Source: an uncultured virus (IMG/VR IMGVR_UViG_2636416135_000002)
Lineage: Duplodnaviria > Heunggongvirae > Uroviricota > Caudoviricetes
Length of the DNA: 64,000 nt
IMG/VR virus record: IMGVR_UViG_2636416135_000002
Reading direction: 5' to 3' (one strand)
The notes beneath the pieces are model-generated. The model had not been told where the DNA came from, ran no database searches, and saw only the letters and a list, made by a program, of their open reading frames with translations. Positions 15,717 to 64,000 of the stretch are shown here, piece by piece (the first letter of the stretch is position 1; each line of letters starts with the position of its first letter). The position numbers were made by a program, and so were the translations under genes.

Positions 15717-16386
15717 GGCCTTCACCTCCTTTGAATGCGCTGTTGCCCGGAAGATATCTCAGTAGGATTTTACGGTCTGTTTTGTACTCATTCCCGATGA
15801 AGCCGAGGCGAAGAAGGAAACAACGGAAAGCGTAGCGTTCGTTGTCTACTGGCTTTTCTGTGGCGCTGATTCGTTTTTGATCCTTGCTCATTTTGCAAAG
15901 GGCAGCAATCAGTGTGCTGTAGGCGTGAATTTCATCCGGTGCAGGAAGTTCTGAGAACCAAGGAAAGGAAATGCTGTCTTCATTCAGTTCAAAGCGTAGG
16001 TCATCAATGTGCAGGGCATGTTTGATGAGAAATCCTTTGGCATCTAGAAGGTTGGTTAGGTTTCCAACATTGACCTTGTCCAGCGGAATGGTAATGTTAA
16101 GTCCCGTTTTTTCTGTAGAAGTTACTTTAGCCTTTGGTTCCTGAGTCGGATGAAAGTATGTTTCTTTCGGACAGTAGCCGCTTGCGTCCAAGAGAGCAAG
16201 CAGTTTGTCGTATTCAGCTGGGCTCATAGTGTTCGGGCCTTCAATGTTTCCTTCTCGTGTCAGGAGAAGGTCCCCAATCTGATAGGCGTAGGAAGGAGCT
16301 CTCAGGTATTGAGGTTTTGTGTTCGTGTACTCGCCAAGCAGGGCTGCCAGCGGCTTTCTTTCGGTTGCGTTTAAAATGATCTTCAT
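15700..16386 (-). CDS. Conserved phage protein (often labelled virulence-related protein; function unknown)
   Basis: PSYAYQIG and NERYAFRCFLLRLGFIGNEYK motifs. Confidence 0.7.
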   Translation of the reverse strand: MKIILNATERKPLAALLGEYTNTKPQYLRAPSYAYQIGDLLLTREGNIEGPNTMSPAEYDKLLALLDASGYCPKETYFHPTQEPKAKVTSTEKTGLNITIPLDKVNVGNLTNLLDAKGFLIKHALHIDDLRFELNEDSISFPWFSELPAPDEIHAYSTLIAALCKMSKDQKRISATEKPVDNERYAFRCFLLRLGFIGNEYKTDRKILLRYLPGNSAFKGGEGHAISK

Positions 16387-16403
16387 GTAGGTGTCCTCCT
16401 TTG

Positions 16404-16446
16404 TTTTGGTAGTACATATATCACTCTAAAAGCACATAATAGCAAG
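16404..16446 (-). promoter_or_regulatory. Duplicated promoter-like element, copy 2
   Basis: Near-identical to 15392-15435; directly upstream of the RBS of the gene starting at 16386. Confidence 0.65.
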
Positions 16447-16504
16447 CGATATCGGAGAAAAACATCGACAAATATGTGCCTTCTGGATTGTGTACATTAC
16501 CGAC

Positions 16505-17755: not shown

Positions 17756-17907
17756 GATGCAGCCCTCCTGTGCAATAACTTTTTTAATCCCTTGAAAGCG
17801 GCATCTATATCACCAGCTTTTGCCTGTCCTTTGAGTGTGCTAAACTGCTGGAAGGTTAAATGCCTGCGATATTTCTTTAGCAAGCTCATAAATTCCGATA
17901 AATCCAT
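17749..17907 (-). CDS. Small hypothetical protein, 52 aa; not in the ORF track
   Basis: Hand translation MDLSEFMSLLKKYRRHLTFQQFSTLKGQAKAGDIDAAFKGLKKLLHRRAASC; AAAGGA RBS; fills the gap between terS and the MTase. Confidence 0.65.
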   Translation of the reverse strand: MDLSEFMSLLKKYRRHLTFQQFSTLKGQAKAGDIDAAFKGLKKLLHRRAASC

Positions 17908-17908
17908 A

Positions 17909-18463
17909 TCAATTTCCTTTCCGTGCCAGTAGAAGACGTTCCATCACATCATCCTGTGGTGTGGCTCCGTTGTATTCAGTGGCACAATTTTCTCTTACGA
18001 TTTGGTAGATCTCCATCCAGAGACGATTGGTTTGGCTCATGAAATTCTGACTCATAGCCACATAGGGTGACTGGATAGCATTGCCAGTGGTCGGATGTTT
18101 CGCAAGAAAGCCAAACTCAGTGATCGCTTCCTCGCATTGAATCCAACGAGCAACACTCATGGCATAGCGCTCCAAAAGCTCTGGAGAGACAAGAGAAGCG
18201 CAGCCACGTTCATGTAGCCAGTTCCATGTTTTCTTGTAGACATCTGTAGCAACGAGCTTTTTTCCGTTCTTTTGCTTGGCAGATAACATCTTGGATGGTT
18301 TGGGCATCGGCTGACCTTCTAAATCGACGGTGCTGTCTGTAAAGTCGATGACAGTCAACTCACGTTTACCCGGATTTCCCTCAGCGATTCTCTCAGCTAA
18401 GGGCTTTTTCTTGGCTCCAGCGCCGATACGAGCGCCGCCACGGTTTGTACCGTCCTTAGCCAT
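17909..18463 (-). CDS. terS: Terminase small subunit (P27 family)
   Basis: RGGARIGAGAKKKP, EGNPGKR, HPTTGNAIQSPYV. Confidence 0.85.
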   Translation of the reverse strand: MAKDGTNRGGARIGAGAKKKPLAERIAEGNPGKRELTVIDFTDSTVDLEGQPMPKPSKMLSAKQKNGKKLVATDVYKKTWNWLHERGCASLVSPELLERYAMSVARWIQCEEAITEFGFLAKHPTTGNAIQSPYVAMSQNFMSQTNRLWMEIYQIVRENCATEYNGATPQDDVMERLLLARKGN

Positions 18464-18550
18464 TTTCTACACCTCCAGTTCAGGGGCCTATATACCCCGT
18501 TTGAAATTGCGACTTTGTGCGTGAGACCCCACGCCCGTTCCCCGGTGACT

Positions 18551-30050: not shown

Positions 30051-30192
30051 TATTAAAGTGTGTATCTATATTCAGATGCGTTCTCCACTTCCTATGACTT
30101 AAGTATATAGGAAAGTGCATTTTTTACCGAACAACGCTGTACATGCTTATACACAGTTGTACACGCTTGATTCAAAATGGAGGTGTTTGGGA

Positions 30193-31350
30193 TTGGCAAA
30201 AACTGAATTCGAAGTGTTTGCTCAAAAAATAGCAACGTATTTTCAAGGAGACCTATCTCCAGAAGAATTTACGAGGACACTTTTTAAGAAAATTTATCTC
30301 AATCCCAATGGTGACACTCTGTTACATGACATGGAGCCTAGGACGCTGCGTGGTTATTTTTACAGAGAGCACAACATCACCACTTTGGCGAAGAAAATAA
30401 ATAAGGACTTGGACTCTCAGTATTTTGAAGAATTTATCGATACAGAGACGGACGATACTATTAAAGGTTTATGCGCGGCATTTGCCGATGAGTGTCCCGG
30501 AATCGACAACGAAAACTTCAAAAATAAAATTGCAGAGAGATTTAAAGAAATTATTTGTAATGCAGCAACAATAAAGCGCAAGCGTAAGAAAACAACAGAA
30601 CTTGTTCCTCAGTCTCAAGAAACAACAGTGGATGCAACAATTTCGCCATCTATCAAAGAGCAATATGGAGCTCTGCTTGTGGCGGAAGAACGCAGTGTTT
30701 GTCCGAATGATGGCTGCAGCACACCGTTATTTGTGAATGTAGGAGGACAGCTCGGAGCAAATTATGAAGTGACATTTATTGACCCATCTGTACCAGAAAC
30801 AAGAATGGAGAATTTAATTGCACTTTGTCCGGCTTGTCATAGCAAATACATCACAGGAAGAACAGATGAGCAGGTTCAGAGATTGTTACATATAAAAAAG
30901 AGCCTCGTAGATGACTACGAGGCGAAAGAGACTGTCTCTATGCAGAAGGTTGAAGATGGTATCCGCAAGGTGCTTGAGAAAATACCCAAAATGCAAGCAC
31001 CAGCAAATATTGATTTGAACTATAATCCTGTGACAATAAGACAGAAGATTGCCACAGATAATTTGATGCTTTATCTCAAGGCAAAGACGAATGTGAATGT
31101 ATATTACAGTGCAGTACAAGATGCATTCACTGAGTTGAACGCTGAAAGAATTCTTCGATATAAACCGTTTTGTCTTCAAGTCAGGATGACATATATGAAC
31201 TTGAGCGATATGGGATTGTCGCAGGATGAGATATTTGAAAAGATGGTTGATTGGTTACAAGATGCCACCCATGAGGATAGGAGCTCGTGTGAAGTGATAA
31301 TTTCTTACTTCATACAGAAATGTGAGGTGTTCGATGCTATTGCCGAATAA
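30193..31350 (+). CDS. ABC-three-component / Lamassu-like effector (HNH-like Zn domain plus C-terminal domain)
   Basis: CPNDGC...ENLIALCPACH; ends IISYFIQKCEVF; TTG start after GGAGGTG. Confidence 0.75.
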   Translation: MAKTEFEVFAQKIATYFQGDLSPEEFTRTLFKKIYLNPNGDTLLHDMEPRTLRGYFYREHNITTLAKKINKDLDSQYFEEFIDTETDDTIKGLCAAFADECPGIDNENFKNKIAERFKEIICNAATIKRKRKKTTELVPQSQETTVDATISPSIKEQYGALLVAEERSVCPNDGCSTPLFVNVGGQLGANYEVTFIDPSVPETRMENLIALCPACHSKYITGRTDEQVQRLLHIKKSLVDDYEAKETVSMQKVEDGIRKVLEKIPKMQAPANIDLNYNPVTIRQKIATDNLMLYLKAKTNVNVYYSAVQDAFTELNAERILRYKPFCLQVRMTYMNLSDMGLSQDEIFEKMVDWLQDATHEDRSSCEVIISYFIQKCEVFDAIAE

Positions 31351-31561
31351 GTTAATATCATACGACCAGAGCATCCTGCCTAAGTTCCCGGTTGTATTGA
31401 AAGAACTAAAAAACAGTCCTATGTCAGTGCATGACTTATACAAAAGAGTGATAAAGAAAATGTCTGGTGTTAGTGAGTTTATTGATACACTAGATTGTTT
31501 GTATGCACTTGGGAAAATAGAATTTGATGAAGAAGAGGAGGTGCTGCGCTATGTTGTATGA
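31334..31561 (+). CDS. ABC-three-component middle component (LmuC-like)
   Basis: 75 aa MLLPNKLISY...LDCLYALGKI, overlapping both neighbours. Confidence 0.75.
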   Translation: MLLPNKLISYDQSILPKFPVVLKELKNSPMSVHDLYKRVIKKMSGVSEFIDTLDCLYALGKIEFDEEEEVLRYVV

Positions 31562-33263
31562 AATTGAATGCGAAAAATTCGCTAAAAAAGTCAAAGGCCA
31601 GCTTGTTCCTCGTGGCCGTATCCAACTTCGTGAAGGTTTAAATACTGTGCTAGGTGATAAAGCTGCACAGAACTCAATTGGTAAGTCTACCTTCCTTCTT
31701 GTTGTTGACTTTTGCTTTGGTGGTGATGATTACATTAATCCTAAGATATGCAAAGCAAAAGAAAAACTGCACTCACATACTATTAACTTTGCTTTTAAAT
31801 TTGGGAATAAAATAGATTATTTTTGCAGAAGCACAAAAACGCCTTCTGAGATAGGTATCTGTGACTCGGAGTATAAAGTACAGCGAATACAAACTCTGAA
31901 AGAATTCAAGGATTACCTCTTGAAGGCGTATGATATAACAACTCCTTCAATCTCATTTAGAGAGATGGTAGGGCGCTTTCTGCGTATCTATGGTAGAGAG
32001 AATTATGCGGAAAGATACCCTTTGAAATACGGGGATGTTAAGCCAGAATCCGCAATAGAAACATTGGAGAAAATGTTCAATGTTTTTGCATTTATTGAAG
32101 AATACAAAAGTGTTTACGATGATAAGAGTAAACGCAGTAAGGTGCGAGATGATGCAACTAAACTTGGTGAGATGACAAATGTCGCAAGGACCAAGAAGGA
32201 ATATAACGCCAATGAAAAGGAAATCGAACGCCTTAGAACAGAATTACAAAAGTTGATGGACAGAGAGGATGCTAAATTATCCCAAGAAGAAACGGACAAT
32301 CTGGATAAAGCATCTGAGATTAGAGGCCAGCTGACAGTTCTGAAAAGAAGACGCAGTAGACTTGTATCGCAACTAAATGCTGTAAAAGCAAATATGTCGG
32401 GAGGTTTTGTTCCAGTTGAGGAAGATTTATCGGAGCTGTCCGAGTTCTTTCCTGATGTTGATGTCCAGAAGCTATCTCAAATAGAGCATTTTCATGACAA
32501 GATGCAGCACATCCTTTCTCAGGAAATGGGCGATGAGATAGCACAGCTTCAGATATTGATTGATGCTATTTCGGCTGAAATGGTAAGGCTTCAAGAATCG
32601 CAAAGGAAACTTGGAATACCGGTGACGATCTCTAAAAAATTTATGGATAGGGTGGTTGAGATTCAGCGTCAAATAGATATTTTAGTTGCAAAAAATAAAG
32701 GATATGACAAATCCGCCAAACTAAAAACAGAGAAAAAAGAAGCAAAAGTTCAACTTGAAGATGTCCGTGAAACACAGCTTCAGGCAGTTGAAACAAGTAT
32801 CAATCAGGAAATGACTCGTCTAAACGATTATATCTATAATGGTGAACGCTATGCGCCTACTATAAAATTTGGAAATTCTAGAAGTGGAAAGCCAACTTAT
32901 GAATTTTGGACTGAGGACGATACTGGAGCAGGCACAAACTTCAAGGGATTAATTATTTTTGACCTTGCACTCTTACGGCTCACGGAGCTACCAGTTATAG
33001 CACATGATTCTAATATTTTCAAAAATATTGCAGACTTGCCGATAGATAAAATCATGGAGCTATATAACCAGAGTGAAAAGCAGATTTTTATTGCATTTGA
33101 TAAAGAAGATACATTTTATGATGTGACACGTGACATTGTCCATTCGACTAAGGTTATTGAGCTTCATGAAAATGGAGGAGAACTATTTGGATGGTCATGG
33201 GCAAAGAAAGCAGCAAGAGAGAAACAAATTGCTACAGAAACTGGTGTGATTGAGGAGTCATAA
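31551..33263 (+). CDS. SMC-like ABC ATPase (DUF2326 / LmuB-like)
   Basis: GLNTVLG...NSIGKST Walker A, central coiled coil, FDLALL...IAHDS Walker B region. Confidence 0.82.
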   Translation: MLYEIECEKFAKKVKGQLVPRGRIQLREGLNTVLGDKAAQNSIGKSTFLLVVDFCFGGDDYINPKICKAKEKLHSHTINFAFKFGNKIDYFCRSTKTPSEIGICDSEYKVQRIQTLKEFKDYLLKAYDITTPSISFREMVGRFLRIYGRENYAERYPLKYGDVKPESAIETLEKMFNVFAFIEEYKSVYDDKSKRSKVRDDATKLGEMTNVARTKKEYNANEKEIERLRTELQKLMDREDAKLSQEETDNLDKASEIRGQLTVLKRRRSRLVSQLNAVKANMSGGFVPVEEDLSELSEFFPDVDVQKLSQIEHFHDKMQHILSQEMGDEIAQLQILIDAISAEMVRLQESQRKLGIPVTISKKFMDRVVEIQRQIDILVAKNKGYDKSAKLKTEKKEAKVQLEDVRETQLQAVETSINQEMTRLNDYIYNGERYAPTIKFGNSRSGKPTYEFWTEDDTGAGTNFKGLIIFDLALLRLTELPVIAHDSNIFKNIADLPIDKIMELYNQSEKQIFIAFDKEDTFYDVTRDIVHSTKVIELHENGGELFGWSWAKKAAREKQIATETGVIEES

Positions 33264-33527: not shown

Positions 33528-34157
33528 ATGGAGCAAAATAACAAAGTAGCCCTACAGGCAGCGAGCCCATATAATGCTGCCATAACAAGAGAACAATTTT
33601 TATTTTATGAAGTGCGAACTACTGCCAAGTTGCTCCATGAGGGATGCAGCTCAGAAGAAGTAGTAGAGCGTATTATTTCAGATAATTTATTTCAGTATCC
33701 GACAGAAAAGTCGGTGCGAAAGATGGCGCTTGCTTGCCTGAGAAGATTAGAGGCACTTGGTGATAATTCTTTAGTTGCAGCAATCGCAACGCAGCCATCC
33801 GATGTAGCAAAGCAGATATGTTTGTATGCCATGATGAAACAGTACCGCTTGATTTGGGATTTCATGATTACCGTCATCGGTGAGAAGTACAGATTATCGG
33901 ACACTACTTTCGGCAAGATAGACTTGAATAGCTATTTCCTGCGCTTGCAGGAGCAGGATGACTGGGTGGCCACATGGAGTGATTCTACGGTTACCAAGTT
34001 GAAACAGGTAATCGCAAAAATACTGGTGGAAAATGAATACATTGATAATATTAAATCTGTAAAGCTCAACCCGGTATGGCTCCAGCCTGTACTTGAGAAT
34101 GCAATCCGTGAAAATGGTGATGAGATTGCTCTTCCTGCATTCAATTGCTTTTCGTAA
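33528..34157 (+). CDS. brxA: BREX protein BrxA (DUF1819)
   Basis: DNLFQYPT and WSDSTVTKLKQ motifs; position before brxB and brxC. Confidence 0.88.
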   Translation: MEQNNKVALQAASPYNAAITREQFLFYEVRTTAKLLHEGCSSEEVVERIISDNLFQYPTEKSVRKMALACLRRLEALGDNSLVAAIATQPSDVAKQICLYAMMKQYRLIWDFMITVIGEKYRLSDTTFGKIDLNSYFLRLQEQDDWVATWSDSTVTKLKQVIAKILVENEYIDNIKSVKLNPVWLQPVLENAIRENGDEIALPAFNCFS

Positions 34158-34171
34158 GGAGGTAGGCCCAA

Positions 34172-34729
34172 GTGAGTGAATTGAAAGAAAGACTAGATAA
34201 CCTCAGAGCCTTAATGCAGGAGCCAGAGTTTCTTGAAGGCAAAGGTTTAAGCAATGAGGTAAATATACGAATCTTCTGTTATGACCCATCCGATGAGATG
34301 ATGGTCAGACATTTTATCGAGCAGATTATGACAGATCAGTCAATGAACTGTCACCTGATAGAACATAACTTATATGAAGTGTTTCTTTCTATCTGTGAAG
34401 ATAAGCGCATCGCAAAAACAATACCTGCGATGGAAGAGAAAAAAGGTAAAGAATTTATCCGAGACCAGATGAGCCGTATGGCTAATAATACAGCTTTTGT
34501 AAATAAGATGAAATATGAACCACATGAAGCTGGTGACGTACTTGTCATTACAGGAGTGGGAGATGCATTTCCGTTTATCAGAGTCCATGACCTGTTAAAT
34601 GCGATGCAGCCAGAATTTCCAGATGTTCCGATTCTGGTGTTCTATCCAGGCAATTATGATGGCCGTGATGTGCAGCTTTTCAATCGCCTGAAGAAAAATC
34701 CTTACTACCGAGCTTTCAATGTGATTTAA
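34172..34729 (+). CDS. brxB: BREX protein BrxB (DUF1788)
   Basis: GLSNEV, IFCYDP, ITGVG, FYPGNY, YYRAF. Confidence 0.9.
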   Translation: MSELKERLDNLRALMQEPEFLEGKGLSNEVNIRIFCYDPSDEMMVRHFIEQIMTDQSMNCHLIEHNLYEVFLSICEDKRIAKTIPAMEEKKGKEFIRDQMSRMANNTAFVNKMKYEPHEAGDVLVITGVGDAFPFIRVHDLLNAMQPEFPDVPILVFYPGNYDGRDVQLFNRLKKNPYYRAFNVI

Positions 34730-34741
34730 GGAGGAACAGCA

Positions 34742-37700
34742 ATGGTTATTGAACAATTATTCCAAGAGGATATTAATCGTAAAATCAATGGCGTCGTTAA
34801 AGTAGACCAAGATGCTACTGATGTTCTTGTTCAGGAATTGGATGAGTATGTCATCACCAGAGATTTGAAGAAGCACTTCATTACTTTCTTTAATAACTAT
34901 GGAGAGTCCTTTCATGAAGGCACTGCAGATATTGGTGTTTGGATTTCCGGGTTCTTTGGAAGTGGTAAATCTCACTTCCTGAAAATGCTCTCCTACCTGC
35001 TTGCTAATCAGGAGGTACAGGGTGTTCGTACCGTAGAACGATTTCGTAAAAAATTTGAGGATGATCCGGCAACATTCATGTTGATTGATTCCGTTACTAA
35101 GGGTCATACGGATACTATCCTTTTCAATATCGATATTGAGGGTTCCATCAACAAGGACAAGACTGCTGTTCTTCGTGTTTTTGCAAAGATGTTCTATAAC
35201 TACCTTGGTTTTTATGGGGAGAATCTTAAGGTAGCAAAGCTGGAGCAGTTCATCGAAAAACGTGGAAAGACAGCAGAGTTCCGTCGTGTATTTGAGGAGA
35301 AAAATGGTGGCCCTTGGCTTGAGTCAAGAGATGCCTTCGCTTTCTTTGAAGACGATGTTGTTGATACATTGAAAGAGGTTCTCGGTATGAGCGAGGATGC
35401 TGCACGTAACTGGTTTAATGGAACCGAGACCGTAGAGACCAGCATCGCACAGCTTGTTTCTGAGATGAAAGATTATGTGGACAATAAACCGGATGACTTC
35501 CGTTTGCTATTTATGGTCGATGAGGTTGGCCAGTATGTAGGTGGCGATACAGACCTTCTTATTAACCTGCAGTCTCTTGTTGAGAAAATCGGCAGTGAGT
35601 GCGGCGGTAAGATTTGGGTTGTTTGTACCGGTCAGGAAGCTATCGATGAAATCATCAAGGCTCGTGAAAATGAGTTTTCTCGTATTCAGGCCCGTTTCAA
35701 GACCAGACTTTCGCTGACTTCTTCTTCCGCAGACGAAGTTATCCAGAAACGTATTTTGAAAAAAAAGCCTGAAGTGGAACCGGCATTGGAACAGATATAT
35801 AGCCAGAATGATTCCGTTCTTCGTAACCTGTTCAGCTTTACTGATGCAATGTTGGACATTAAGGGATATACCGGTCCGCAGGACTTTGCCAGAAACTTCC
35901 CGTTCGTACCTTACCAGTTCATTATCATGCAGAAGGTATTTGCTGAAATCCGTAAACATGGTAACTCTGGTAAACACCTTTCCGGTGGTGAACGTTCGAT
36001 GCTTTCCGGATTCCAAGAGGCAGCACAGAGGATTCAGGATAAGGACGAGTATGCACTGGCACCGTTCTATCTTTTCTACGATACCGTACATACATTCCTT
36101 GACAGTTCTATTCGTCGTGTTATTGAGCGTTGCCAGAAGGCAGCAGACAACGGTGATGGTATTGAACAGCAGGATGTGGACGTTTTAAAGCTCCTGTATC
36201 TTATCCGTTATGTCGATGATATTCCGGCAAACATTGATAACATTGTTATCCTTATGGCGGATGATATTCGTTTGGATAAGATTACGATGCGCGAAAAGGT
36301 ACGTGGCAGTCTCGACCGTCTGCTTAGTCAGAACTACATCGGAAGAACCGGTGACACTTATAATTTCCTGACTGATGAAGAACAGGATATTCAAAGAGAC
36401 ATTTACAAAAATACTCAGGTCGATACCTCTGCAATCGTGGAGCGTATTGGCCAGATGATTTTTGCTGATATTTATACAACAAAGAAATACCGTCACGGAA
36501 AGTACGATTTCCCATTTGATCAGATGGTAGACACAACAAGCATTGGTGCCGTAACCGGTGGTATGAGACTTCGCATCATGACGGTAGCAACAGACACTGT
36601 TGAGAAGAGTGAGCTTCGTCTTATGACAGAGTCTAAAAATCAGGCGATCGTTGTACTTGCTGAAACACCTTATTATGAGTCATTGGAAAAAGCAATGAAA
36701 GTGCGTAAATATGTAAAGCAGCGTAATGTAGCACAGCTACCGAAGTCCGTACAGGACATCATTCGAAATCATCAGGATGAGGCTAACAAGTACGAAGCAT
36801 CTGCAGAGGAAGATTTGAAGAAGGCAATCGTTGATGCAGAGTTCTATGTAGATGGAGAACGTATTGAAGTTAAGGGTGGAGATGCTAAGAGCAAGCTGGA
36901 TCAAGCGCTGGAATATTTAGTTACTCATGTTTATAGTGAACTTGGTCTTATTACAAAGAATGCGGATACAGACGCTGATATATTGGCAGTACTGCAGGGT
37001 GACCATCTGAATGGTGTTATGGCTGGTATGGAAGAAAACCATGACGCCGCAGTGAAAATGGAAGAATATTTGGAAATGCAGGACGCCAAAAAACTTCCTA
37101 CTTCTATGGCAGATGTACAGAGCCGCTATCAGGCGATTCCTTATGGCTGGAAGGAAATCGACATTGCGGTTGTGGCTGCGATGCTGATTTACGACTAGAA
37201 GGTCACGGTTAAGTACGGTGGCGAAACTATCCAGCCGGGTAATCCAAAACTTCCGGATATGCTTCGTAAGAAGAGTGAGATTGGCAGAACAAGCATCTCT
37301 AAGCGTCAGATCATTACGGCAACTAAGATGCGTGCCGTCAAAGAATTGCTGCGTGAATACTTCGATGTAATGGACGTACCGGATGATGAAGACGGGCTAG
37401 TTGGATATATTGTTGAGAAGTTTGAAGAACAGAAGTCTCATTATGAGAAGCTGAATGAACGTTATGAGGGTCATAAATATCCTGACCATCACCTTGTGAC
37501 AAAAGCTCTCAGCCTAATGGAAAGTGTACTTTCTCAGCGCAAGGATAATACAGCTCTGATTGACAGACTTCTGAAGGAGGAAGACAGCCTCCTTGATAAT
37601 AAGGATGACATGCAGAGCGTTGAAGGTTTCTTCAAGAATCAGGTGCAGGTGTTCGATGCAGCAGTTCGTATGGAAGCAGAGCTGAGAAACGACCTCTCTT

Positions 37701-38296
37701 ATCTTCAGAAGGAAGAGGAGGCAAATCAGGCACTGAATCAGATTCGTAAGATTACCGTAGTGGATGCCGGACAGAGTAGCGTTTACAGACGTATCCCTGA
37801 GTTGAACGGATTGATGGATACTGTTCGTGAGGGCCACGGAAGGCTTCTCGAAGCAAAGCGAGCAGAGATTCTTGAAATCATCCGTCAGTGCTTGTCAGAA
37901 ATCCATACTCTTGCCGGTGATGTTTATGATGCCAGAGCAATATCTGAGCGTGCTGATAAATTCTTTGATCAGCAGAAGACAAGAGTGGCAGAGCTGGAAA
38001 GCCTGCAGCTTCTTGATGGTCTGGTACCTCAGATGTGGGGATATAAGGATGACACAGTCGATAAAATCGATGGTATCGTTCATCCAAAGACTCCAGTTAC
38101 ACCAACCGTCAAACCGAAAGAAGGTGGAGCAGTAACTCCTCCAGCTCCAAAGAAGGTTATCAAAAATGTATACCGTCAGGCGGCATTCCCTTCTAAGACT
38201 CTTGAGAGTCAGGAAGATATCGATGCCTACGTTGAAAGAATGAGAGCATACCTCACTGCAATGATGAAGGATTGCGACGGAATCAAATTAAGCTAA
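34742..38296 (+). pseudogene. brxC: BREX ATPase BrxC split by an in-frame TAG at 37196-37198
   Basis: WISGFFGSGKSH Walker A and VDEVGQY Walker B; frame continues Y-D-stop-K-V-T-V-K-Y-G-G into the 37259 ORF. Confidence 0.85.
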
Positions 38297-38306
38297 GGAG
38301 ACCGTT

Positions 38307-39779
38307 ATGAACAAGAATGCGATAAAAAAATTCGCCACAGAGGCTCGCCGAGAGTTAATCTCCCGTGTGAGCCAGAGGGCGTTGAAATACGGTATTTCCG
38401 ATAAAGAAATCGGAAATCCAAATGACGATAGCGTCAATGGGCATTTGCTTTCTTCTACCGAGAAGAAGCAGAGAGCTGCCTTGATTGCGCAGATTAAAGA
38501 AAAAGGATATGAGCAGGTTATGGAGGAGGTTGCCTACACATGGTTTAACCGTTTCTCCGCACTGCGATTCATGGAGGTCAATGGATATCTCCCTAGTAGA
38601 GTGCGTGTTTTCACAGATGAAAACAATGCATTTAAGCCTCAGATTCTTACTGAGGCAATTCACATGGAGCTGGATGGACTCGATATGGAGAAAGTCTATG
38701 CCTATAAGGAAGCCAATGACAATGATGAATTGTATAAGTATCTTCTGATTACCCAGTGCAATGCACTCAATAGCGTGCTTCCGGGTATGTTCCAGAAGAT
38801 TGCAGACTACACCGAGCTTTTGTTTCCTGACAACCTTCTTCGTGAAGGTAGTGTTGTTCAGCAGATGATTGAACTGATACCGGAGGAAGATTGGAAGGAT
38901 GCCGTTCAGATTATTGGATGGTTGTATCAATACTATAATATTGAACAAAATGAACTTGTATATGATGGCACTATGTCAAAGAGCAGGCTTCCGAAGGAAT
39001 TGATTCCTGCAGCAACAACAATATTTACTCCAGATTGGGCCGTCAGGTACATGGTAGAAAACTCTTTGGGGCATATTTGGTTGGAAGGGCACCCAGATGA
39101 TGAACTGAAATCTCAGTGGAAGTATTATCTGGAAGAGGCAAAGCAGGAGTCAGTTGTTCAGGATCAGCTTGCGTCCATTCGTGAAGAGTATAAAGCTCTG
39201 AAACCAGAAGATATTCTGTGCATCGACCCTTGCTCCGGCAGCGGCCACATTTTGGCCTATATGTTTGATGTGCTCGTTCAGATTTATGAGGCTTATGGTG
39301 TTGATACCAGAACTGCAGTTGCAAGTATCGTAGAAAACAACATCTATGGATTGGATATCGATGACCGTGCAGCACAGCTGGCATACTTCTCCGTTATGAT
39401 GAAAGCCTGCCAGTACGATAAGAGATTCTTTCGTCGTAAGGTTCAACCGCATGTTTACGCCATTGCAGAAAGTAACTATGTGGACCAGTATGCAGTGGAA
39501 TACTTCTGTAATAGTGATGTAAAGCTAAAGACAGCAATGGATACCATTATTGCAGAGCTTCATGATGCAAAGGAATATGGTTCTATCCTTACAATTAGCC
39601 AGCAAGATTGGAATACTCTCTATGCTCGTTTTGATGAGATTAAGAATGAGAGTGTGATGTCGATTTATTCAGAAGCAGCATTAAAGTTAAAAAATATGGT
39701 CGAAGTTGCTGAAGTTTTGTCGAAAAAATACCATGTTGTTTCCACTAATGAGCGTGAATTATTAGGACTAAGTGATTAA
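38307..39779 (+). pseudogene. pglX: BREX methyltransferase PglX, 5' part, truncated at motif IV
   Basis: EEVAYTWFNR, IIGWLYQYY, FTPDWAVRYMVENSLG, DPCSGSGHIL; ends KYHVVSTN-ERELLGLSD-stop where NPPY is expected. Confidence 0.9.
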
Positions 39780-46867: not shown

Positions 46868-47734
46868 TTGGAAGGCATACTCGAACAGATAACCAATTGG
46901 TTGAAGGAAATGCTCGTTGGCGGCATTATGGATAATCTGTCGGGGATGTTTGATTCTGTCAACCAGCAGGTTGGCGAAATTGCGGTAGAAGTGGGAATGA
47001 CTCCGGAAGTTTTTTCACCCGGAGTCTTTTCCATGATTCGTAATGTATCCGAATCAGTCATTATCCCGATTGCAGGATTGATTTTGACTTTTATCGCCTG
47101 TTACGAGCTGATACAGATGATTATCGATCACAATAATCTCAACAATTTTGAAACATGGATCTTTTTCAAGTGGATCTTCAAGACCTTTGTTGCTGTCATG
47201 CTGATAACCAACACTTTCAATATCACGATGGCTGTCTTTGATATAGCAAATCATGTGATAGAAGCAAGCGGAGGCATTATTTCCGGCGATACAGCGATAG
47301 ATCCGGGAATGCTGGACGCTCTTGAAGAAACGCTGATGGAAATGGATGTCGGACCGCTTCTTGGTCTGTTCCTTCAGTCGCTGATCGTGCAGATTACGAT
47401 GTCGGTGCTGTCGATTGTGATTTTTATCATCGTCTATGGAAGAATGATTGAGATCTATTTAATGACGAGCTTGGCTCCTATTCCGTTATCGACATTCGGA
47501 AACAGAGAACAAAGCCAAGTCGGACAGAACTATCTGAGGTCGCTGTTTGCATTAGGTTTTCAAGGCTTCTTGATCATGATATGCGTCGGTATCTATGCGG
47601 TACTGATCAGTGAGCTGGCATTAAGCGATGACATCATCATGTCGATATGGGGAATCATGGGTTACACCATTCTGCTTTGCTTTACGCTGTTCAAGACAGG
47701 AAGCTTGGCAAAGAGCGTATTCAATGCCCATTAA
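46868..47734 (+). CDS. VirB6-like conjugal transfer membrane protein
   Basis: Multi-pass; YGRMIEIYL...APIPL, NYLRSLFALGFQGFLI. Confidence 0.88.
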   Translation: MEGILEQITNWLKEMLVGGIMDNLSGMFDSVNQQVGEIAVEVGMTPEVFSPGVFSMIRNVSESVIIPIAGLILTFIACYELIQMIIDHNNLNNFETWIFFKWIFKTFVAVMLITNTFNITMAVFDIANHVIEASGGIISGDTAIDPGMLDALEETLMEMDVGPLLGLFLQSLIVQITMSVLSIVIFIIVYGRMIEIYLMTSLAPIPLSTFGNREQSQVGQNYLRSLFALGFQGFLIMICVGIYAVLISELALSDDIIMSIWGIMGYTILLCFTLFKTGSLAKSVFNAH

Positions 47735-47745
47735 GGAGGTCGCAG

Positions 47746-48306
47746 ATGAAGAAATACAATGTAATCTATGTCGATCCCCCTTGGAGCTATCGTGTATGGA
47801 GCGACAAAGGAAAAGGACGCTCTGCGGAAAGCCATTATTCGACGATGAGTATTGAGGATATCAAGAAGCTGCCCATAGGAAAACTGGCAGATAAGGATTG
47901 TGCTTTGTTTATGTGGATCACATTCCCTTTGCTTGAAGAAATGGGCGAAGTATTGAAGGCTTGGGGATTCAAATACAAGACGGTGGCTTTCGTATGGATC
48001 AAGCAGAACAAGAAATCGGATTCTTTGTTCTGGGGAATGGGTTATTGGACAAGAGCCAATGCAGAGATCTGTATCTTGGCGACAAAAGGAAGTCCGAAAC
48101 GATGTTCCAAAGGGATTCATCAAGTCATCGTTTCCCATATTGAAAGGCACAGCAAAAAACCGGAAGAAGCAAGAAAGCGTATAGAGAAGCTGATGGGCGA
48201 TGTTCCTAAGATTGAACTGTTTGCAAGAGAAAAAGCAGAGGATTGGGATACTTGGGGAAATGAAGCACCTGATGGCATATCTATACCGGAATTGGAGGTG
48301 GTCTAA
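47746..48306 (+). CDS. MT-A70-family adenine methyltransferase
   Basis: YVDPPW, GMGYWTRANAE, HSKKP, IELFAR; ATG 47746 after AAGGAGG. Confidence 0.9.
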   Translation: MKKYNVIYVDPPWSYRVWSDKGKGRSAESHYSTMSIEDIKKLPIGKLADKDCALFMWITFPLLEEMGEVLKAWGFKYKTVAFVWIKQNKKSDSLFWGMGYWTRANAEICILATKGSPKRCSKGIHQVIVSHIERHSKKPEEARKRIEKLMGDVPKIELFAREKAEDWDTWGNEAPDGISIPELEVV

Positions 48307-59063: not shown

Positions 59064-59657
59064 ATGATGAAGATAGAAAAATGGGACGAAATCAATGGAG
59101 CCAGCCATGAGAAAAAGCTAGAAGCATTTATTGAATCGACCAACGACTGCTATGCCATCATGCAGCTTAAAAGAACGGAAGAAACAGCAATGGAACGATT
59201 TGCTTCGATGACAGAGCTGAACTATTTGGGAAAGACGCCACAGATCGATCATTATGAAATCGTTTATGTCGCACCTATGGAATCGACTGAACCGCAGAGC
59301 GTTCTGCTTGAAAGCCTATACGAAAAATTCAACCTCTATCATCCGGAAGATTTTCGAGGACATAGTTTATCGGTCAGCGACATCGTGGCATTGAAAACAA
59401 ATGATATGGTATCCTGCCATTACGTTGATACGATTGGTTTCAAAGAACTGCCGGACTTTATGAAGCCTGAGAACTATTTGAAAAATGCAGAAATGTCGAT
59501 GGAAGATGATTATGGAATGATTGACGGTGTCATCAACAACGGAAAAGGCATGGATAGTCTGGAGAAACCATCTGTTTTAGAAAAACTGAAAGAACCGTCA
59601 GCCATAGGAGAAATCAAAAAGCCTTCCAAAGCACATTTGGAAAGAGAGCTGGAATGA
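59064..59657 (+). CDS. YodL plus DUF4316-like protein
   Basis: HPEDFRGHSLSVSDIV; NYLKNAEMSMEDDYGMIDGVINNG. Confidence 0.8.
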   Translation: MMKIEKWDEINGASHEKKLEAFIESTNDCYAIMQLKRTEETAMERFASMTELNYLGKTPQIDHYEIVYVAPMESTEPQSVLLESLYEKFNLYHPEDFRGHSLSVSDIVALKTNDMVSCHYVDTIGFKELPDFMKPENYLKNAEMSMEDDYGMIDGVINNGKGMDSLEKPSVLEKLKEPSAIGEIKKPSKAHLERELE

Positions 59658-59863
59658 TGGAATTTACGCATGATGAAAAAATATTGATACTGATTTATCA
59701 GACAGGAACAAGAAAAGATTTGATTGAAACATTGGAACAGATGAAAGCACAGCTTGATTATGATGAAACAGAACTAAAGGAAATGAGCGAATCGCTTCTT
59801 CTGAAGCTGAACAGGATGAGCGACAAGGAATTCGACGGTCTGTGCTTTTATCCAGACATTTAA
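59654..59863 (+). CDS. Transposon-transfer-assisting (TTRAP-like) protein
   Basis: FTHDEKILILIY...KLNRMSDKEF. Confidence 0.7.
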   Translation: MMEFTHDEKILILIYQTGTRKDLIETLEQMKAQLDYDETELKEMSESLLLKLNRMSDKEFDGLCFYPDI

Positions 59864-59880
59864 GGACGGGAGGTTAGCAG

Positions 59881-62800
59881 ATGAATCAAAAAGAAAAATA
59901 CTATGCCAGCGTAGCTGCAAGTACGATTAAGGAAATCTCAAGCAGTGTGGAATCATGGACTTCGTTTCTTACGACGATGGGAAAGAACTATGATTTCAGC
60001 TATCCGGATCAAGTGATGATCCATGCCCAGCGACCGAATGCGACGCTATGTATGGAATTTGACCAGTGGAAAGAAGAAAAGTACAGATATGTGAAGCGAG
60101 GCTCTAAAGGAATCGCCTTGTTCGTTACGGATAGCGAAAAACCTTATCTTAGATATGTATTTGATGTTTCGGATACCGGCAGCCGAAGAAATTCTCGTGA
60201 GCTTGAAAAACTATGGAAATTTGATGACATTCATCGTATTCCGATTCAAGAAGCTATGGAGAAAGCTTATGGAGCTAAAAAAGAATGGAACATGGAAATG
60301 CAGCTTCAAAATGTTGCAGAAAAGCTTGCGGAAGAATATTTCAACGACAGAAGAAACGAGATGGCTGACATCATTGCGGAATCTTTCTTAGAAGGTTATG
60401 ATGAACTTAACATAGAAGTAGCCTTTACAAGAGCAGTATCAACAAGCGTTGCCTACAGCCTTTATTCAAGATTGACGGATAATGCGGAAGCCTACTTCGA
60501 TGAGGAAGATTTCAGAAATATCTTTGAATTCAACACAAGGAAAAGCATCAATGCTTTAGGTACAGCAGTCAGCACAATCAGTACCGAGATGTTTCTTGAA
60601 ATCGAAAAGACAGTGATTGCATTTGAACAACAAAAAGAGGTCGAAAGGAGCGAGAGATATGACGACACAGATGAACTACAGCCAGATTGGAGAATATTTG
60701 ATTCCGGAAATTCAGTTACAGAACACAGAAGCGAAGCCATTGGGAAAATACGCAAGGATGAGGAGAGCGTTCCTCAAGGAGAACAAACCGATGACTTACA
60801 ACGACATGATTTTGACGGAGACATTGTTTCCGCACCTTTGGGAAGTGGACGAAACAGCGAACAAGAGAATGGAAGTGCTGATGAGCCAGTTGCTGGAGAA
60901 GAATCCGGCACCGAGCAAGAAGGAAAACCAGATGTCTTGGGTGCAGCACATGAACGCACTAAAGGCACAAGCCGAAGAAATGATTATGACGGAGTTAATC
61001 AACAACTAACCTTAGACCTGTTCCTAAGCGAGCAGGAACAGATCAGATGGATAGATGAAGCGGAGAGCGTAGAAAGCAATGCGACCTTCGCTTTTTCTTT
61101 TGCCCAAGAAGATATTGATACCATCCTGATCCATGGAAGCAATACTGATAATGCCAGAATGATGGTTGCGACAGAATTTATGAAGCAGAAATCAGCTGAT
61201 GAAATTGCTGAAAGCTTGAAAACAATCTATCATGGCGGATACGGTCTTAAAACAAGTAGAGGTGCGGTTTCTGCTTGGTATGGAGAAGATGGCATTCACT
61301 TGGCTAAGGGAAATACAGCAAGATATTCTGATGTGAATATCATTTCTTGGAAAGAAGCGGCAGAGCGTATCAGTGAACTGCTTGAAAACGGGCAGTTCGC
61401 AACCAATGTGGAGCTTGTTGAAGCAGAAAACTTTGAAAAAACACAGATTGCACAGAAACTGTGGTATCTTGTGCGTGATTTCAGCGATGAAAGCAAGGAA
61501 CTTCATCTTTTTCCAAGTCTTTCAGATATCAGAGGCATTGGATTTCCGAATGAAACCAAGGAGCTTGCTCAAAAACTGAATGATACTCACTTCTGCAATC
61601 AGCTAGCTGCTGAATATGAAGATTTTATCCGGAAGTACGAAGCAGACAGAAGCATTCTTCGTTTTCACTATCATCGTGTATATGATTTGGAAAAATCAAT
61701 CAAAGAACTTTTTCTTGAACGAAGGAACTATCAAACTGAAATGTTCGACTTCCCTGAAAGAAAAACCTTTATTACGGACGATGAAATCAACGCAGACCTT
61801 GCAAGAGGCAGCGGCTTTTCCGGTGGAAAAGGAAGAATCTATGATTATTTTACGGAAAGCCACGATACGAAAAGCAAGGCAGACTTTTTGAAAAATGAGT
61901 TCGGTACAGGTGGTCATTCTCATGCCTTGTCCGGTGCGACTCATAGCGGACAGGATCATAGTGCCAAAGGAATTGTTTATAAAAAAGAGGGCTGTGAAAC
62001 TGTCAATCTGAACTGGACGCAGGTAGCAAACCGTATCAGCGAGCTGATAAAAAAAGACCGTTATCTGACAGCTGAGGAGCTTGAAAAAAGACAATTAAAA
62101 GAAGCCGAGCCATTAGGAGCTGAGGTGGTGAAAGAAGCGACAATAGAAGCAGATGAAGTTTTAGAAGACATTGCTGCTGAAGAAGTATTAGAGGACTATC
62201 CTTTTGCGGTCGGTCAAAGAGTGTTTCTTGAAGGTACGGAGTTTGAGATTACAGAAATCAGAGAGCATGAAGTACAGCTTCTTGATCCGTCTTTGCTCTA
62301 TCCGATCTTTCGAGTGGAAAGCAAAGCTGATTTTGAACGATTGGTGGAGCTTGAAGAAAAGAATGAAGAAATCAAAGAAGAAACTGTTGAGATACCGGCA
62401 GCCAACTACACCATCAGCAACGAGCATTTAGGTGAAGGCGGTCCGAAACAGAAGTTTGCAAGAAACATTGAAGCAATAAAACTGCTTTATGACTTGGAAA
62501 AAGAAAATCGGAATGCGACTTTTGAAGAACAGGAGATATTGTCGAACTATGTCGGCTGGGGTGGACTTGCTGACGCATTTGACAGCAATAAGCCAAACTG
62601 GTCAAACGAATATCAGGAACTGAAGAATCTGCTTCCAGAAAAGGAATATGAGATGGCACGAGCTTCGACGCTGAACGCCCATTATACAAGTCCGGTAGTC
62701 ATTAAGGCGATGTATGAAGCGTTGTCGCAGATGGGATTTAAAACAGGGAATATCTTGGAGCCATCTATGGGGATTGGCAACTTCTTTGGGCTTCTTCCGG

Positions 62801-64000
62801 AATCCATGAGAGGAAGCAATCTTTACGGAGTTGAGCTTGATTCTATCACTGGTCGTATTGCCAAAAAGCTTTACCCGAATGCTGATATTAAAATTAGCGG
62901 ATTTGAAAAAACAGATCGAAGGGATTTCTATGATATATCTATCGGCAACGTGCCTTTCGGGAATTACAAGGTCAGTGACAAACCATACGACAAGCTTGGT
63001 TTTTCAATCCACAACTATTTCTTCGCTAAGGCTCTGGATCAAGTAAGACCGGGCGGTATCGTTGCTTTTGTTACAAGTCGCTATACGATGGATCAGCAGA
63101 GTCCCGATGTCAGACAATATCTTGCTCAAAGAGCAGAGCTTCTTGGTGCAGTCAGACTTCCCAACAACGCATTTAAAGCCAATGCCGGAACAGATGTTGT
63201 GTCAGATATTATCTTCTTGCAGAAACGGGATCATCCGATTGACATTGAGCCGGATTGGGTGCATTTGGGACAGAGTGAAGATGGATTTGCCATTAACAGC
63301 TATTTTGTCGAAAATCCTCAGATGGTGCTAGGAAGGCTTGAAAGTCAGTCAACCCAGTACGGTAAAGAAGAATGTACGGTTGCTCCGATTGAGGGTACAG
63401 AACTATCAGAGCTTTTAAGCAATGTAATCAAGAATATTAACGGAAGCTATGTTGAAGCAGAGGTATCGGAACAGCCACTTGTGGGAGCTGCGGAAACTAT
63501 TCCGGCAGCACCGGATGTAAAGAACTTCTCTTATGCTGTGGTTGATGATGAAATCTATTTCAGAGAAAACTCAGTGATGAGGCTTTGTGATTTCAATGAT
63601 ACTGCCAAAGGCAGAATCAAAGGCATGGTAGAGCTGAGAAAAATCGTCAATGAGCTGATTGACTATCAGTTGAATGATTACTCCGACGAGGATATCAAAA
63701 CGAAGCAGAAAGAGTTGGATATAGCTTATGATGAATTTTCATCTAAGTATGGCTTGCTTAATTCAAGAGCCAACTCGATGGCATTTGCAGATGATTCTTC
63801 CTACTACCTTTTATGCTCCCTTGAGAACATTGATGAAAACGGAAATCTTGAAAGTAAGGCGGATATGTTTACCAAAAGAACGATCCGACCGGAAGTTAAC
63901 ATTACAAGCGTGGATACGCCGATTGAAGCGTTGGCAATCTCCATCGGAGAAAGAGGTGTGGTAGATCTTCCGTATATGGCAGAGCTTGTAGGTACGCCAG
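59881..64000 (+). CDS. Giant ArdC-like/N6-methylase protein of the ICE methylase-SNF2 helicase (DarB-like) family; runs off the window, absent from the ORF track
   Basis: Hand translation: IHAQRPNAT and VKRGSKGIAL at the N-terminus; YVGWGGL, STLNAHYT, LEPSMGIGNF and IGNVPFG in the same frame. The helicase part is inferred to lie beyond the window. Confidence 0.88.
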   Translation, partial: MNQKEKYYASVAASTIKEISSSVESWTSFLTTMGKNYDFSYPDQVMIHAQRPNATLCMEFDQWKEEKYRYVKRGSKGIALFVTDSEKPYLRYVFDVSDTGSRRNSRELEKLWKFDDIHRIPIQEAMEKAYGAKKEWNMEMQLQNVAEKLAEEYFNDRRNEMADIIAESFLEGYDELNIEVAFTRAVSTSVAYSLYSRLTDNAEAYFDEEDFRNIFEFNTRKSINALGTAVSTISTEMFLEIEKTVIAFEQQKEVERSERYDDTDELQPDWRIFDSGNSVTEHRSEAIGKIRKDEESVPQGEQTDDLQRHDFDGDIVSAPLGSGRNSEQENGSADEPVAGEESGTEQEGKPDVLGAAHERTKGTSRRNDYDGVNQQLTLDLFLSEQEQIRWIDEAESVESNATFAFSFAQEDIDTILIHGSNTDNARMMVATEFMKQKSADEIAESLKTIYHGGYGLKTSRGAVSAWYGEDGIHLAKGNTARYSDVNIISWKEAAERISELLENGQFATNVELVEAENFEKTQIAQKLWYLVRDFSDESKELHLFPSLSDIRGIGFPNETKELAQKLNDTHFCNQLAAEYEDFIRKYEADRSILRFHYHRVYDLEKSIKELFLERRNYQTEMFDFPERKTFITDDEINADLARGSGFSGGKGRIYDYFTESHDTKSKADFLKNEFGTGGHSHALSGATHSGQDHSAKGIVYKKEGCETVNLNWTQVANRISELIKKDRYLTAEELEKRQLKEAEPLGAEVVKEATIEADEVLEDIAAEEVLEDYPFAVGQRVFLEGTEFEITEIREHEVQLLDPSLLYPIFRVESKADFERLVELEEKNEEIKEETVEIPAANYTISNEHLGEGGPKQKFARNIEAIKLLYDLEKENRNATFEEQEILSNYVGWGGLADAFDSNKPNWSNEYQELKNLLPEKEYEMARASTLNAHYTSPVVIKAMYEALSQMGFKTGNILEPSMGIGNFFGLLPESMRGSNLYGVELDSITGRIAKKLYPNADIKISGFEKTDRRDFYDISIGNVPFGNYKVSDKPYDKLGFSIHNYFFAKALDQVRPGGIVAFVTSRYTMDQQSPDVRQYLAQRAELLGAVRLPNNAFKANAGTDVVSDIIFLQKRDHPIDIEPDWVHLGQSEDGFAINSYFVENPQMVLGRLESQSTQYGKEECTVAPIEGTELSELLSNVIKNINGSYVEAEVSEQPLVGAAETIPAAPDVKNFSYAVVDDEIYFRENSVMRLCDFNDTAKGRIKGMVELRKIVNELIDYQLNDYSDEDIKTKQKELDIAYDEFSSKYGLLNSRANSMAFADDSSYYLLCSLENIDENGNLESKADMFTKRTIRPEVNITSVDTPIEALAISIGERGVVDLPYMAELVGTP
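60659..61009 (+). CDS. tnpV: TnpV-family protein nested in the +1 frame of the giant gene
   Basis: 116 aa: YSQIGEYLIP, LGKYARMRRAFLKE, LFPHLWEVD, WVQHMNALKAQAEE; RBS GAAAGGAG at 60643-50. Confidence 0.8.
   Translation: MTTQMNYSQIGEYLIPEIQLQNTEAKPLGKYARMRRAFLKENKPMTYNDMILTETLFPHLWEVDETANKRMEVLMSQLLEKNPAPSKKENQMSWVQHMNALKAQAEEMIMTELINN
61058..61101 (+). terminator. Terminator-like hairpin after the nested tnpV, inside the giant ORF
   Basis: AAGCGGAG...CTTCGCTT stem running into TTTCTTTT. Confidence 0.5.

Follow-up and report, generated by a model that had tools for sequence, protein, structure and literature searches.

Small genes embedded out of frame in larger ones are known from phage lambda, where Rz1 lies inside Rz, and from Bacillus subtilis, where comS lies inside srfAB. 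We describe here an arrangement of this kind in IMG/VR record IMGVR_UViG_2636416135_000002, assigned to an uncultured virus, of which a stretch of 64,000 nucleotides (nt) was analyzed and is called the window below. On its + strand, a complete tnpV gene (60659-61009) lies in the +1 frame of a giant gene that starts at 59881 and belongs to a conjugative element. We consider it very probable that the two form a conserved same-strand overlapping gene pair, with a tnpV cassette occupying the linker DNA of the giant gene. As in Rz1/Rz and comS/srfAB, a small complete gene with its own start sits on the same strand as a larger gene in a shifted frame and, as with comS, the host is a giant multidomain gene. 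The locus differs from both precedents in that an overlap of 351 nt is kept across lineages with 25-28% host-domain identity, in that the inner gene is also widely found free (86 of 120 sampled loci), and in that a conserved terminator-like hairpin lies inside the host open reading frame (ORF). We know of no terminator-like hairpin of this sort for Rz1 or comS.

The inner gene belongs to the same family as TnpV of Tn4451/Tn4453 (PF14198), with full-length coverage of the profile and a similar size (~115 amino acids, aa), and relatives of the window TnpV also occur free after TnpX-type recombinases. It departs from the Tn4451/Tn4453 pattern in being nested out of frame in a giant gene and in having no adjacent recombinase; none of the 29 + strand ORFs scanned between 30115 and 59860 gave a recombinase match in Pfam, and the element continues past the end of the window. 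The outer gene, in turn, resembles those of the polyvalent or DarB-like methylase-helicase proteins (Iyer et al. 2017, PMC5512222), which are known from conjugative elements and phages; the product here is likewise a giant multidomain protein of a conjugative element, with a possibly ArdC-like N terminus, SNF2/helicase domains and LPD16, YodL and TTRAP neighbors. A term search of the main text of that paper returned no mention of TnpV or of an overlapping, frameshifted or alternative reading and, as far as that main text goes, the nested gene and the putative internal terminator are not part of the published description of polyvalent proteins. The passages on TnpV in the searchable literature, which leaves subscription journals outside its scope, mention no nested arrangement, and reports of overlapping genes tied to conjugative helicase or methyltransferase genes included none that was relevant by its title or abstract. 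Within that literature the overlap is not described, and an embedded gene together with an intragenic terminator-like element is a new combination.

The overlapping pair and its relatives

The +1-frame ORF spans 60617-61009, with an ATG at 60659 and a TAA stop codon at 61007-61009, and from that ATG it encodes a product of 116 aa. Dividing (60659-59881) by 3 leaves a remainder of 1, which places tnpV in the +1 frame of the giant gene; its 116 codons and stop lie wholly inside that gene, giving the overlap of 351 nt. Frame 0 is free of stops across 60659-61009, where it reads ...ERSERYDDTDELQPDW...EESGTEQEGKPD... The +1 protein matches the Pfam TnpV profile PF14198 over positions 1-111 of 111 with an E value of 8.9e-37 and 125.9 bits. 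This score exceeds the gathering cut-off of 27, and the size of the protein falls within the range of ~110-125 aa, but the gene is nested rather than free-standing. With the inner ORF fully within the outer one, on the same strand, in a shifted frame and with start signals of its own, the two constitute an embedded pair.

Three surveys of relatives bear on whether this arrangement is peculiar to the window. A scan with a TnpV alignment, taking one genome per species, placed tnpV nested in the same phase in 68 of the best 80 of 531 confirmed relatives, with 11 of the 80 stand-alone and one broken by a stop. Reduced to distinct sequences, this set holds 43 nested tnpV genes, including that of the window and two plasmid loci, and 12 stand-alone ones. 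The giant frame is stop-free in all 43 nested sequences, in which the third frame contains 8-19 stops; in the 12 stand-alone genes the giant-type frame contains 3-12. Synonymous-codon shuffles within the nested tnpV genes introduce a mean of 3.0 giant-frame stops, and of 500 shuffles of the window tnpV, 1.6% retain an open giant frame.

A six-frame search of 300 Clostridia genomes gave 223 TnpV matches in 111 genomes. From these we took 119 of the 150 matches listed and one other, for a sample of 120 loci; the 31 listed matches that were dropped mostly lay less than ~2 kb from a contig start or contained stops, and the 73 further matches were left aside. The sample comprises 33 nested loci, 86 stand-alone loci and one (L150) that lies under a giant-type frame cut short downstream. 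The giant frame has 0 stops in all 33 nested loci and at least one (median 7) in all 86 stand-alone loci, among which is counted L154, a decayed nested copy with one stop.

Searching the same 300 genomes with the first 250 residues of the giant protein yielded 84 matches in 58 genomes. A comparison of coordinates puts a same-strand TnpV match just downstream in 39 of the 43 strongest, and 22 of 24 further loci (4 strong and 20 weaker) have a nested TnpV-frame match in the same phase, 240-334 codons in. The two exceptions are L218, which has no TnpV match, and L225, which is truncated. A nested tnpV is present in 61 of the 63 examined genes with this N-terminal domain, down to a domain identity of 25-28%; the remaining 21 matches, mostly short partial ones in smaller ORFs, stand outside this count.

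Across the nested loci tnpV starts 240-338 codons into the giant ORF, and its phase is constant. All 98 of them (43 + 33 + 22) keep both frames open, with no stop or frameshift seen in the TnpV frame, whereas the giant-type frame is interrupted by 1-22 stops in each of the 98 free tnpV genes; the overlap is therefore not a matter of chance, and a chance origin of the open overlap is excluded. Both frames are maintained in relatives, as in an embedded overlapping pair, and nesting extends to distant plasmid homologues on a Clostridium botulinum plasmid and a Clostridium perfringens plasmid. A 506-aa piece of the giant protein used as the query in the contig scan confirmed no relative, and a DNA similarity search with 59881-61400 found no plasmid match and one short match in the phage collection.

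These results bear out much of an earlier note on this DNA, which had read the +1 protein as TnpV-like, had estimated ~350 bp of dual-coding sequence and had taken the frame from 59881 to run on without stops as a polar linker. The first reading agrees with the full-coverage profile match and the second with the measured 351 nt and the 98 nested loci; the linker is stop-free and is predicted to be disordered, as described below. The note had also named frequent +1-frame stops among homologues, or two genes flanking tnpV, as outcomes that would speak against it. Neither frame has such stops, and a single giant ORF recurs in 98 loci, so the arrangement is not a sequencing artifact.

Start signals and selection on the two frames

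The tnpV gene is preceded by the Shine-Dalgarno sequence GAAAGGAG (60643-60650, + strand), 8 nt before its ATG, in agreement with the strong ribosome-binding site that had been noted 8 nt before the ATG at 60659. This sequence or a near variant (GAAAGGA, AAGGAGG) stands 5-12 nt before the start in nearly all of 43 and of 72 distinct nested sequences. Frame 0 reads the same letters as E255-R256-S. In the alignment of giant proteins E255 is invariant and R256 nearly so, within a linker that is otherwise variable, and this apparent protein motif is a shadow of the ribosome-binding site. TnpV would very probably be translated independently, with ribosomes initiating on the giant mRNA at the Shine-Dalgarno sequence and ATG of tnpV.

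Upstream of the ATG, the tnpV frame stays open for 14 to ~170 codons, varying by locus. In one subfamily (L016, L058) it is open for ~260 codons, and these two loci carry a second, short TnpV-like stretch upstream in the tnpV frame (9836-9904 in L016 and 161-232 in L058; profile positions 42-65), which may be a partial duplication.

The pattern of variation separates the two frames. In a codon alignment of 19 distinct close relatives, position 3 of the giant gene is the most variable in both flanks (entropy 0.94 and 1.02), as in ordinary coding DNA. Within the overlap, giant position 3, which is tnpV position 2, has the lowest entropy (0.27), and giant position 1, which is the wobble position 3 of tnpV, has the highest (0.64). 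A frame-specific comparison of nonsynonymous (pN) and synonymous (pS) differences, which the earlier note had put forward as a check on dual coding, points the same way: over 780 pairs of 40 distinct nested sequences, anchored on the ungapped tnpV frame, the TnpV frame has a pN of 0.161 and a pS of 0.483 (pN/pS ~0.33), and the giant frame in the overlap has a pN of 0.262 and a pS of 0.127 (pN/pS ~2). The TnpV protein alignment contains 42 invariant columns among 18 sequences. Purifying selection is carried by the TnpV frame. The giant frame is still constrained, in that it is stop-free and of fixed length, and the linker shows no indels among 18 homologues with 52-100% identity. At equal pN, moreover, nested tnpV genes have a lower pS than stand-alone ones (0.54-0.60 versus 0.80-0.83), which suggests an extra constraint from the giant frame.

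We modeled giant residues 1-520 with AlphaFold2 from 27 aligned sequences. The frame-0 reading across tnpV is predicted to be a disordered linker (residues 262-382; 60664-61026, + strand), with a predicted local distance difference test score (pLDDT) of 25-39 and no secondary structure, and the model becomes confident again from residue ~384. This unstructured stretch coincides with the tnpV overlap, which covers giant residues 260-376. In a contig of a ~92% identical relative from the X3 run, a 1-nt insertion and a 1-nt deletion lie 10 nt apart (60741 and 60751) and would shift both frames for three codons; this is a single contig at a depth of 9, and the pair of indels may be an assembly error.

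Three other accounts of the overlap have to be set against an embedded pair. It is conceivable that the giant ORF is not read through at all, the real units being an N-terminal gene, tnpV and a downstream methylase/helicase gene, with the open frame 0 owed to accident or assembly error. The low-complexity, predicted disordered reading of frame 0 would fit such an account, as would its pN/pS of ~2, which is the value expected without amino-acid constraint, and a terminator-like element placed after tnpV as it would be after an ordinary gene. We nevertheless hold it to be very unlikely: frame 0 is stop-free in every nested set (43/43, 33/33 and 22/22) and interrupted in all 98 stand-alone genes, it is rarely open after codon shuffles, the length of the linker is fixed without indels, and no stop closes the N-terminal domain, so that ribosomes must continue. 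Internal Shine-Dalgarno-like sequences stimulate frameshifting in prfB and dnaX, and together with the open stretch upstream of the ATG this raises the thought that a programmed +1 frameshift near 60617-60659, stimulated by GAAAGGAG, joins TnpV to the ArdC-like domain. What makes such a fusion highly improbable is that an ATG or other start codon 5-12 nt after the Shine-Dalgarno sequence is conserved, that stand-alone tnpV genes share the start residue and have an ordinary Shine-Dalgarno sequence, that the upstream open stretch is freely variable in length, and that no conserved slippery or hungry-codon site was seen. Finally, the +1 ORF might be a chance open frame or a dead relic of tnpV; the full Pfam profile match, the 42 invariant columns among 18 relatives, the pN/pS of the TnpV frame and the conserved Shine-Dalgarno sequence and start leave this idea with hardly any credibility.

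A terminator-like hairpin inside the giant ORF

An intrinsic-terminator-like element (61057-61101, + strand) follows tnpV within the giant ORF. In it, GAAGCGGAG (61057-65) pairs with CTTCGCTTT (61086-94), and TTCTTTT (61095-61101) comes next. The hairpin starts 48 nt past the tnpV stop, close to the ~50 nt at which the earlier note had placed a terminator-like hairpin, and it proves to be both conserved and covarying; frame 0 encodes ...EAES...TFAFSF across it. The fold of 61005-61125 has an energy of -36.4 kcal/mol (z -4.24), and 0 of 200 shuffles are as stable. Because the loop in the window is 20 nt long, the hairpin is absent from a simple terminator scan with loops of 3-8 nt. A different hairpin of 8 bp, CTGTTCCT / AGGAACAG (61018-61041, + strand), is the first to follow the tnpV stop, and its pairing is not kept, the aligned columns of most relatives being non-complementary.

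We aligned the 135 nt downstream of the tnpV stop in 72 distinct nested sequences. In an 11-pair helix, 82.1% of cells are paired, compared with 36-59% when the 3' partner is slid by 1-3 columns. Changes on both sides occur in 10 of the 11 pairs, with 81 double-change cells against 30.6 in shuffles, and 0 of 500 shuffles reach 81. At one pair, where 33 sequences have G-C and 29 have A-U, the two columns are, in the window, the third codon positions of Ala and Phe. At least 9 of the 11 pairs form in 58 of the 72 rows, and conservation reaches at least 90% at four T's (61092-95) on the 3' foot of the stem. Many relatives have the textbook form, in which a stem of 10-12 bp with a 5-nt loop is followed by TTTTTCTT.

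A strict finder that allows no mismatch detects the element in only 30 of 74 nested sequences, a count that is low because many stems carry one A-C mismatch or a TTTTGT tail. A relaxed finder recovers the element no more than 160 nt past the tnpV stop in 87.7% of distinct nested sequences (64 of 73), where the median stem energy is -16 kcal/mol; the same finder gives 52 of 853 windows elsewhere in the same giant ORFs (6.1%) and 29 of 96 stand-alone tnpV genes (30%). In distant lineages the element occurs in 16 of 21 sequences with unrelated stems, which indicates that the structure is conserved and not the encoded peptide. An Rfam search of 60400-61400 returned a single sub-threshold match, to ctRNA_p42d (23.6 bits versus a gathering cut-off of 50), which we treat as chance.

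A GC-rich stem-loop with a U-run, conserved through compensatory changes, has the features of an intrinsic terminator, and from its sequence the hairpin looks like one that lies inside the giant ORF. Like described intrinsic terminators and attenuators, it pairs a GC-rich stem-loop with a T-run at a place where downstream expression could be gated. It differs from known attenuators in being located inside a translated ORF rather than in a leader or intergenic spacer, and no antiterminator or alternative structure was identified. In Gram-positive conjugative plasmids, terminators inside long operons are overcome by processive antitermination. The earlier note had suggested that the hairpin could attenuate the downstream methylase domain, an idea with which its strong conservation agrees. 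On balance, we see about an even chance that the hairpin works as a partial intrinsic terminator or attenuator.

In the mechanism that we propose, TnpV would be translated from its own start on the mRNA of the giant gene, and the hairpin would stop part of the transcripts ~90 nt after tnpV to leave a short RNA. This RNA would include the tnpV stop, which precedes the hairpin, and would therefore suffice for complete TnpV but not for the complete giant protein. The hairpin would in this way gate transcription into the methylase/helicase part, and read-through, helped by frame-0 ribosomes or by antitermination, would give the full mRNA. Ribosomes translating tnpV would release 48 nt before the stem and so would not mask it.

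A number of observations weigh against parts of this picture. The sequences surveyed are related, and the counts are not independent events; saturation or codon usage might account for part of the gap in pS between nested and stand-alone genes; and the predicted TnpV fold has no Foldseek match in the PDB at E<=0.001. A consensus scan of 59500-62000 found no promoter-like site on the + strand, which is not evidence of absence. The matches from RNA libraries are contigs of a ~92% identical relative that span the whole stretch, whose ends and strand are not readable and which may derive from DNA, and only small shares of the sequence words are present in the runs concerned. One such contig crosses the terminator region, so that termination, if real, is incomplete, or else the contig is DNA. 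Within the hairpin, A-C mismatches (66 cells) outnumber G-U pairs (40 cells), and pairing in the sense RNA is not singled out; the element is also missing from 9 of the 73 nested sequences (L002, L003, L068, L106-L108, L111, L124 and L163).

Some of these points would fit other roles for the hairpin and T-run, namely an RNA stability or processing element that protects the 3' end of a fragment carrying tnpV, a signal acting at the DNA level on the single strand that is transferred, or a side effect of the EAES...SAFSF motifs. The hairpin sits within an ORF that needs to be transcribed through, its A-C mismatches exceed its G-U pairs, an RNA-library contig spans it, and Rfam offers only the sub-threshold ctRNA_p42d match for the region. 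The anatomy is, however, canonical and found on the sense strand only, with a GC-rich stem of 8-12 bp, often a 5-nt loop, and a T-run at the 3' foot; distant lineages keep the structure with unrelated stems, and hence with different encoded residues; and the element is 14-fold enriched over other windows of the same genes. We regard these alternative roles as rather unlikely.

The giant gene, its element and the wider TnpV family

The giant polyvalent gene runs in frame 0 on the + strand from 59881 to 63999 and is open at the end of the window; its full product has 2446 aa (P0003, 100% identity in the protein collection). The N-terminal domain (residues 1-261; 59881-60663, + strand) is folded in the AlphaFold2 model, with a pLDDT of 70-94, and is ArdC-like by fold. 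Its closest fold in the PDB is that of ArdC of plasmid R388 (6i89; Foldseek probability 0.99, E 0.015, target-normalised TM-score 0.36). We take this likeness, which comes from a predicted structure, as a lead and not as a firm assignment. Pfam gives nothing at E<=0.09 for the N-terminal domain or for residues 384-940, and nothing at E<=1 for the N-terminal domain, and a sequence-profile search of the PDB with this domain returned 0 matches.

Further along the protein, residues 1008-1088 weakly match the Eco57I methylase profile of Pfam (19.3 bits versus a cut-off of 25.3), the NCBIfam MAD2 methyltransferase model scores 23 bits against a cut-off of 720, and one homologue of the giant protein carries the source name 'N12 class adenine-specific DNA methylase'. 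The precomputed Pfam annotation of P0003 places the SNF2/helicase domains PF00176, PF00271 and PF04851 beyond the window. We read the product as a polyvalent protein with an ArdC-like N terminus, a predicted disordered linker, more domains, a putative N6-methylase-like region and an SNF2-type helicase. At locus L047 the giant ORF stops early (2239 aa) and is followed by a TnpX-type large serine recombinase, with Resolvase, Recombinase, Zn ribbon and DUF4368 domains, and by a second, free tnpV (15924-18522); it looks as if a mobilizable element resembling Tn4451 had inserted into the giant gene there. The giant ORF is also shortened in L033, L050, L051, L052, L037, L065 and L073.

By a Pfam scan of the ORFs, the conjugative element occupies the + strand of the window from ~39,990 onward. 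It opens with RepA_N/DUF6017 (39991), ParA, ParB, DpnD-PcfM/DUF3846, the coupling protein (T4CP), TrbL_2 and an MT-A70 methylase, and continues with PrgI, a VirB4-like ATPase, NlpC/P60, a CD1107-like protein, a topoisomerase, LPD16, YodL/DUF4316 and TTRAP, after which the giant ORF is the next gene. The element carrying the nested tnpV also has relaxosome-associated and partition genes. The MT-A70-family methylase gene (47647-48303) lies within the type IV secretion cluster, and the start of its ORF overlaps the end of the TrbL_2 ORF (46868-47731).

Directly before RepA_N/DUF6017, the first gene of the element, lies a BREX-like locus (33528-39776) with BrxA, BrxB, BrxC as two ORFs (34742-37195 and 37259-38293) and a short methylase-like ORF of 490 aa (38307-39776) with weak Eco57I/MmeI matches; the BREX methylase gene may have been the insertion site of the conjugative element. 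Farther upstream, two + strand ORFs (30115-33260) have the defence-associated domains ABC-3C CTD11 and DUF2326. The window with the conjugative element shares 52% of sampled words with G001, a record filed as viral.

The AlphaFold2 model of TnpV itself (pLDDT 84.6) shows a beta-hairpin followed by four helices. Compared with 48,161 chains by VIA-align, this fold found only generic helical-hairpin matches (Z<=6.8), which neither point to a family nor speak against one. A paper on Clostridium difficile elements repeats a proposal that TnpV aids excision, from a likeness to lambda Xis (PMC3158075). A review citing Lyras et al. 2004 states that neither integration nor excision by the Tn4451 recombinase depends on a directionality factor (PMC5704250). 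An Xis-like or excisionase role for TnpV is not supported here. TnpV is probably a small protein that serves mobile elements as an accessory factor, and we lean toward a role in regulation or nucleic-acid binding over one in excision.

Free tnpV genes occur directly after TnpX-type large serine recombinases (L001, L047, L114, L115, L145 and L169) and beside relaxases, of Mob_Pre at 5 loci and of the MobA type at 7. Cargo genes are frequent neighbors (L084-L203), among them XhoI, BglII, a type I R subunit, D12 and C5 methylases, and Shedu, Kiwa, pPIWI_RE and Schlafen-type genes, as well as a gene of the ribosomal-protection EF-G type in L095 and L202. At L095, an SNF2 fragment ends 16 nt before tnpV. 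This cargo pattern agrees with published reports that place tnpV directly upstream of tet(O) (PMC11913394) and TnpV-bearing elements in snf2 genes of integrative and conjugative elements of Streptococcus suis (PMC9815147). Nested and free forms intermingle in a tree built from 162 distinct TnpV sequences, on which the state changes 12 times, at least 3 of these changes being forced by well-supported branches; a free clade (the L013 group) sits within a nested clade with 87-91% support in the Shimodaira-Hasegawa-like approximate likelihood ratio test (SH-aLRT). The gene has accordingly switched between nested and free more than once. Since the tree has no root and spans just 117 columns, we draw no firm direction of change from it.

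Database entries treat the overlap unevenly. Three TnpV entries from NCBI or ENA agree letter for letter with nested ORFs (P0150 with L009, on the same 24,246-nt contig, P0213 with L024, and P0229 with the L061 type), whereas the RefSeq plasmid tables consulted list the giant gene only, as 'SNF2-related protein' or 'helicase-related protein'. TnpV calls of the Prodigal type come mostly from contigs of <1 kb, in which the giant ORF is cut. The expectation that gene callers would miss the nested tnpV therefore holds for the RefSeq plasmid tables and fails for the NCBI entries named 'TnpV protein'.

A further idea is that the cassette of tnpV and terminator is a regulatory switch, in which TnpV acts on the downstream hairpin, or on RNA polymerase there, and sets the level of read-through. 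We think this doubtful. If it were true, TnpV would control entry into the methylase/helicase part in its nested form and entry into restriction-modification, defence and tet cargo genes in its free form, and it would be the first of a new family of small factors that act in termination or antitermination to time expression once the element has entered a cell.

Bacterial genes that overlap out of frame over a long, conserved stretch are rare, and reports of them usually meet with doubt. The pair described here has an overlap of 351 nt kept across host domains that have diverged to 25-28% identity, and the free tnpV copies serve as an internal control. It illustrates that an entire gene cassette can be accommodated in the disordered linker of a giant protein, and that 'conserved motifs' in such a linker (ERS, EAES...SAFSF) can be the shadows of a ribosome-binding site and a terminator. 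It also shows that annotation is inconsistent at the overlap in conjugative elements that are very common in gut bacteria. The intragenic hairpin provides a testable handle on the relative expression of tnpV and a giant gene of the anti-restriction type, and it bears as well on the role of the widespread TnpV family.

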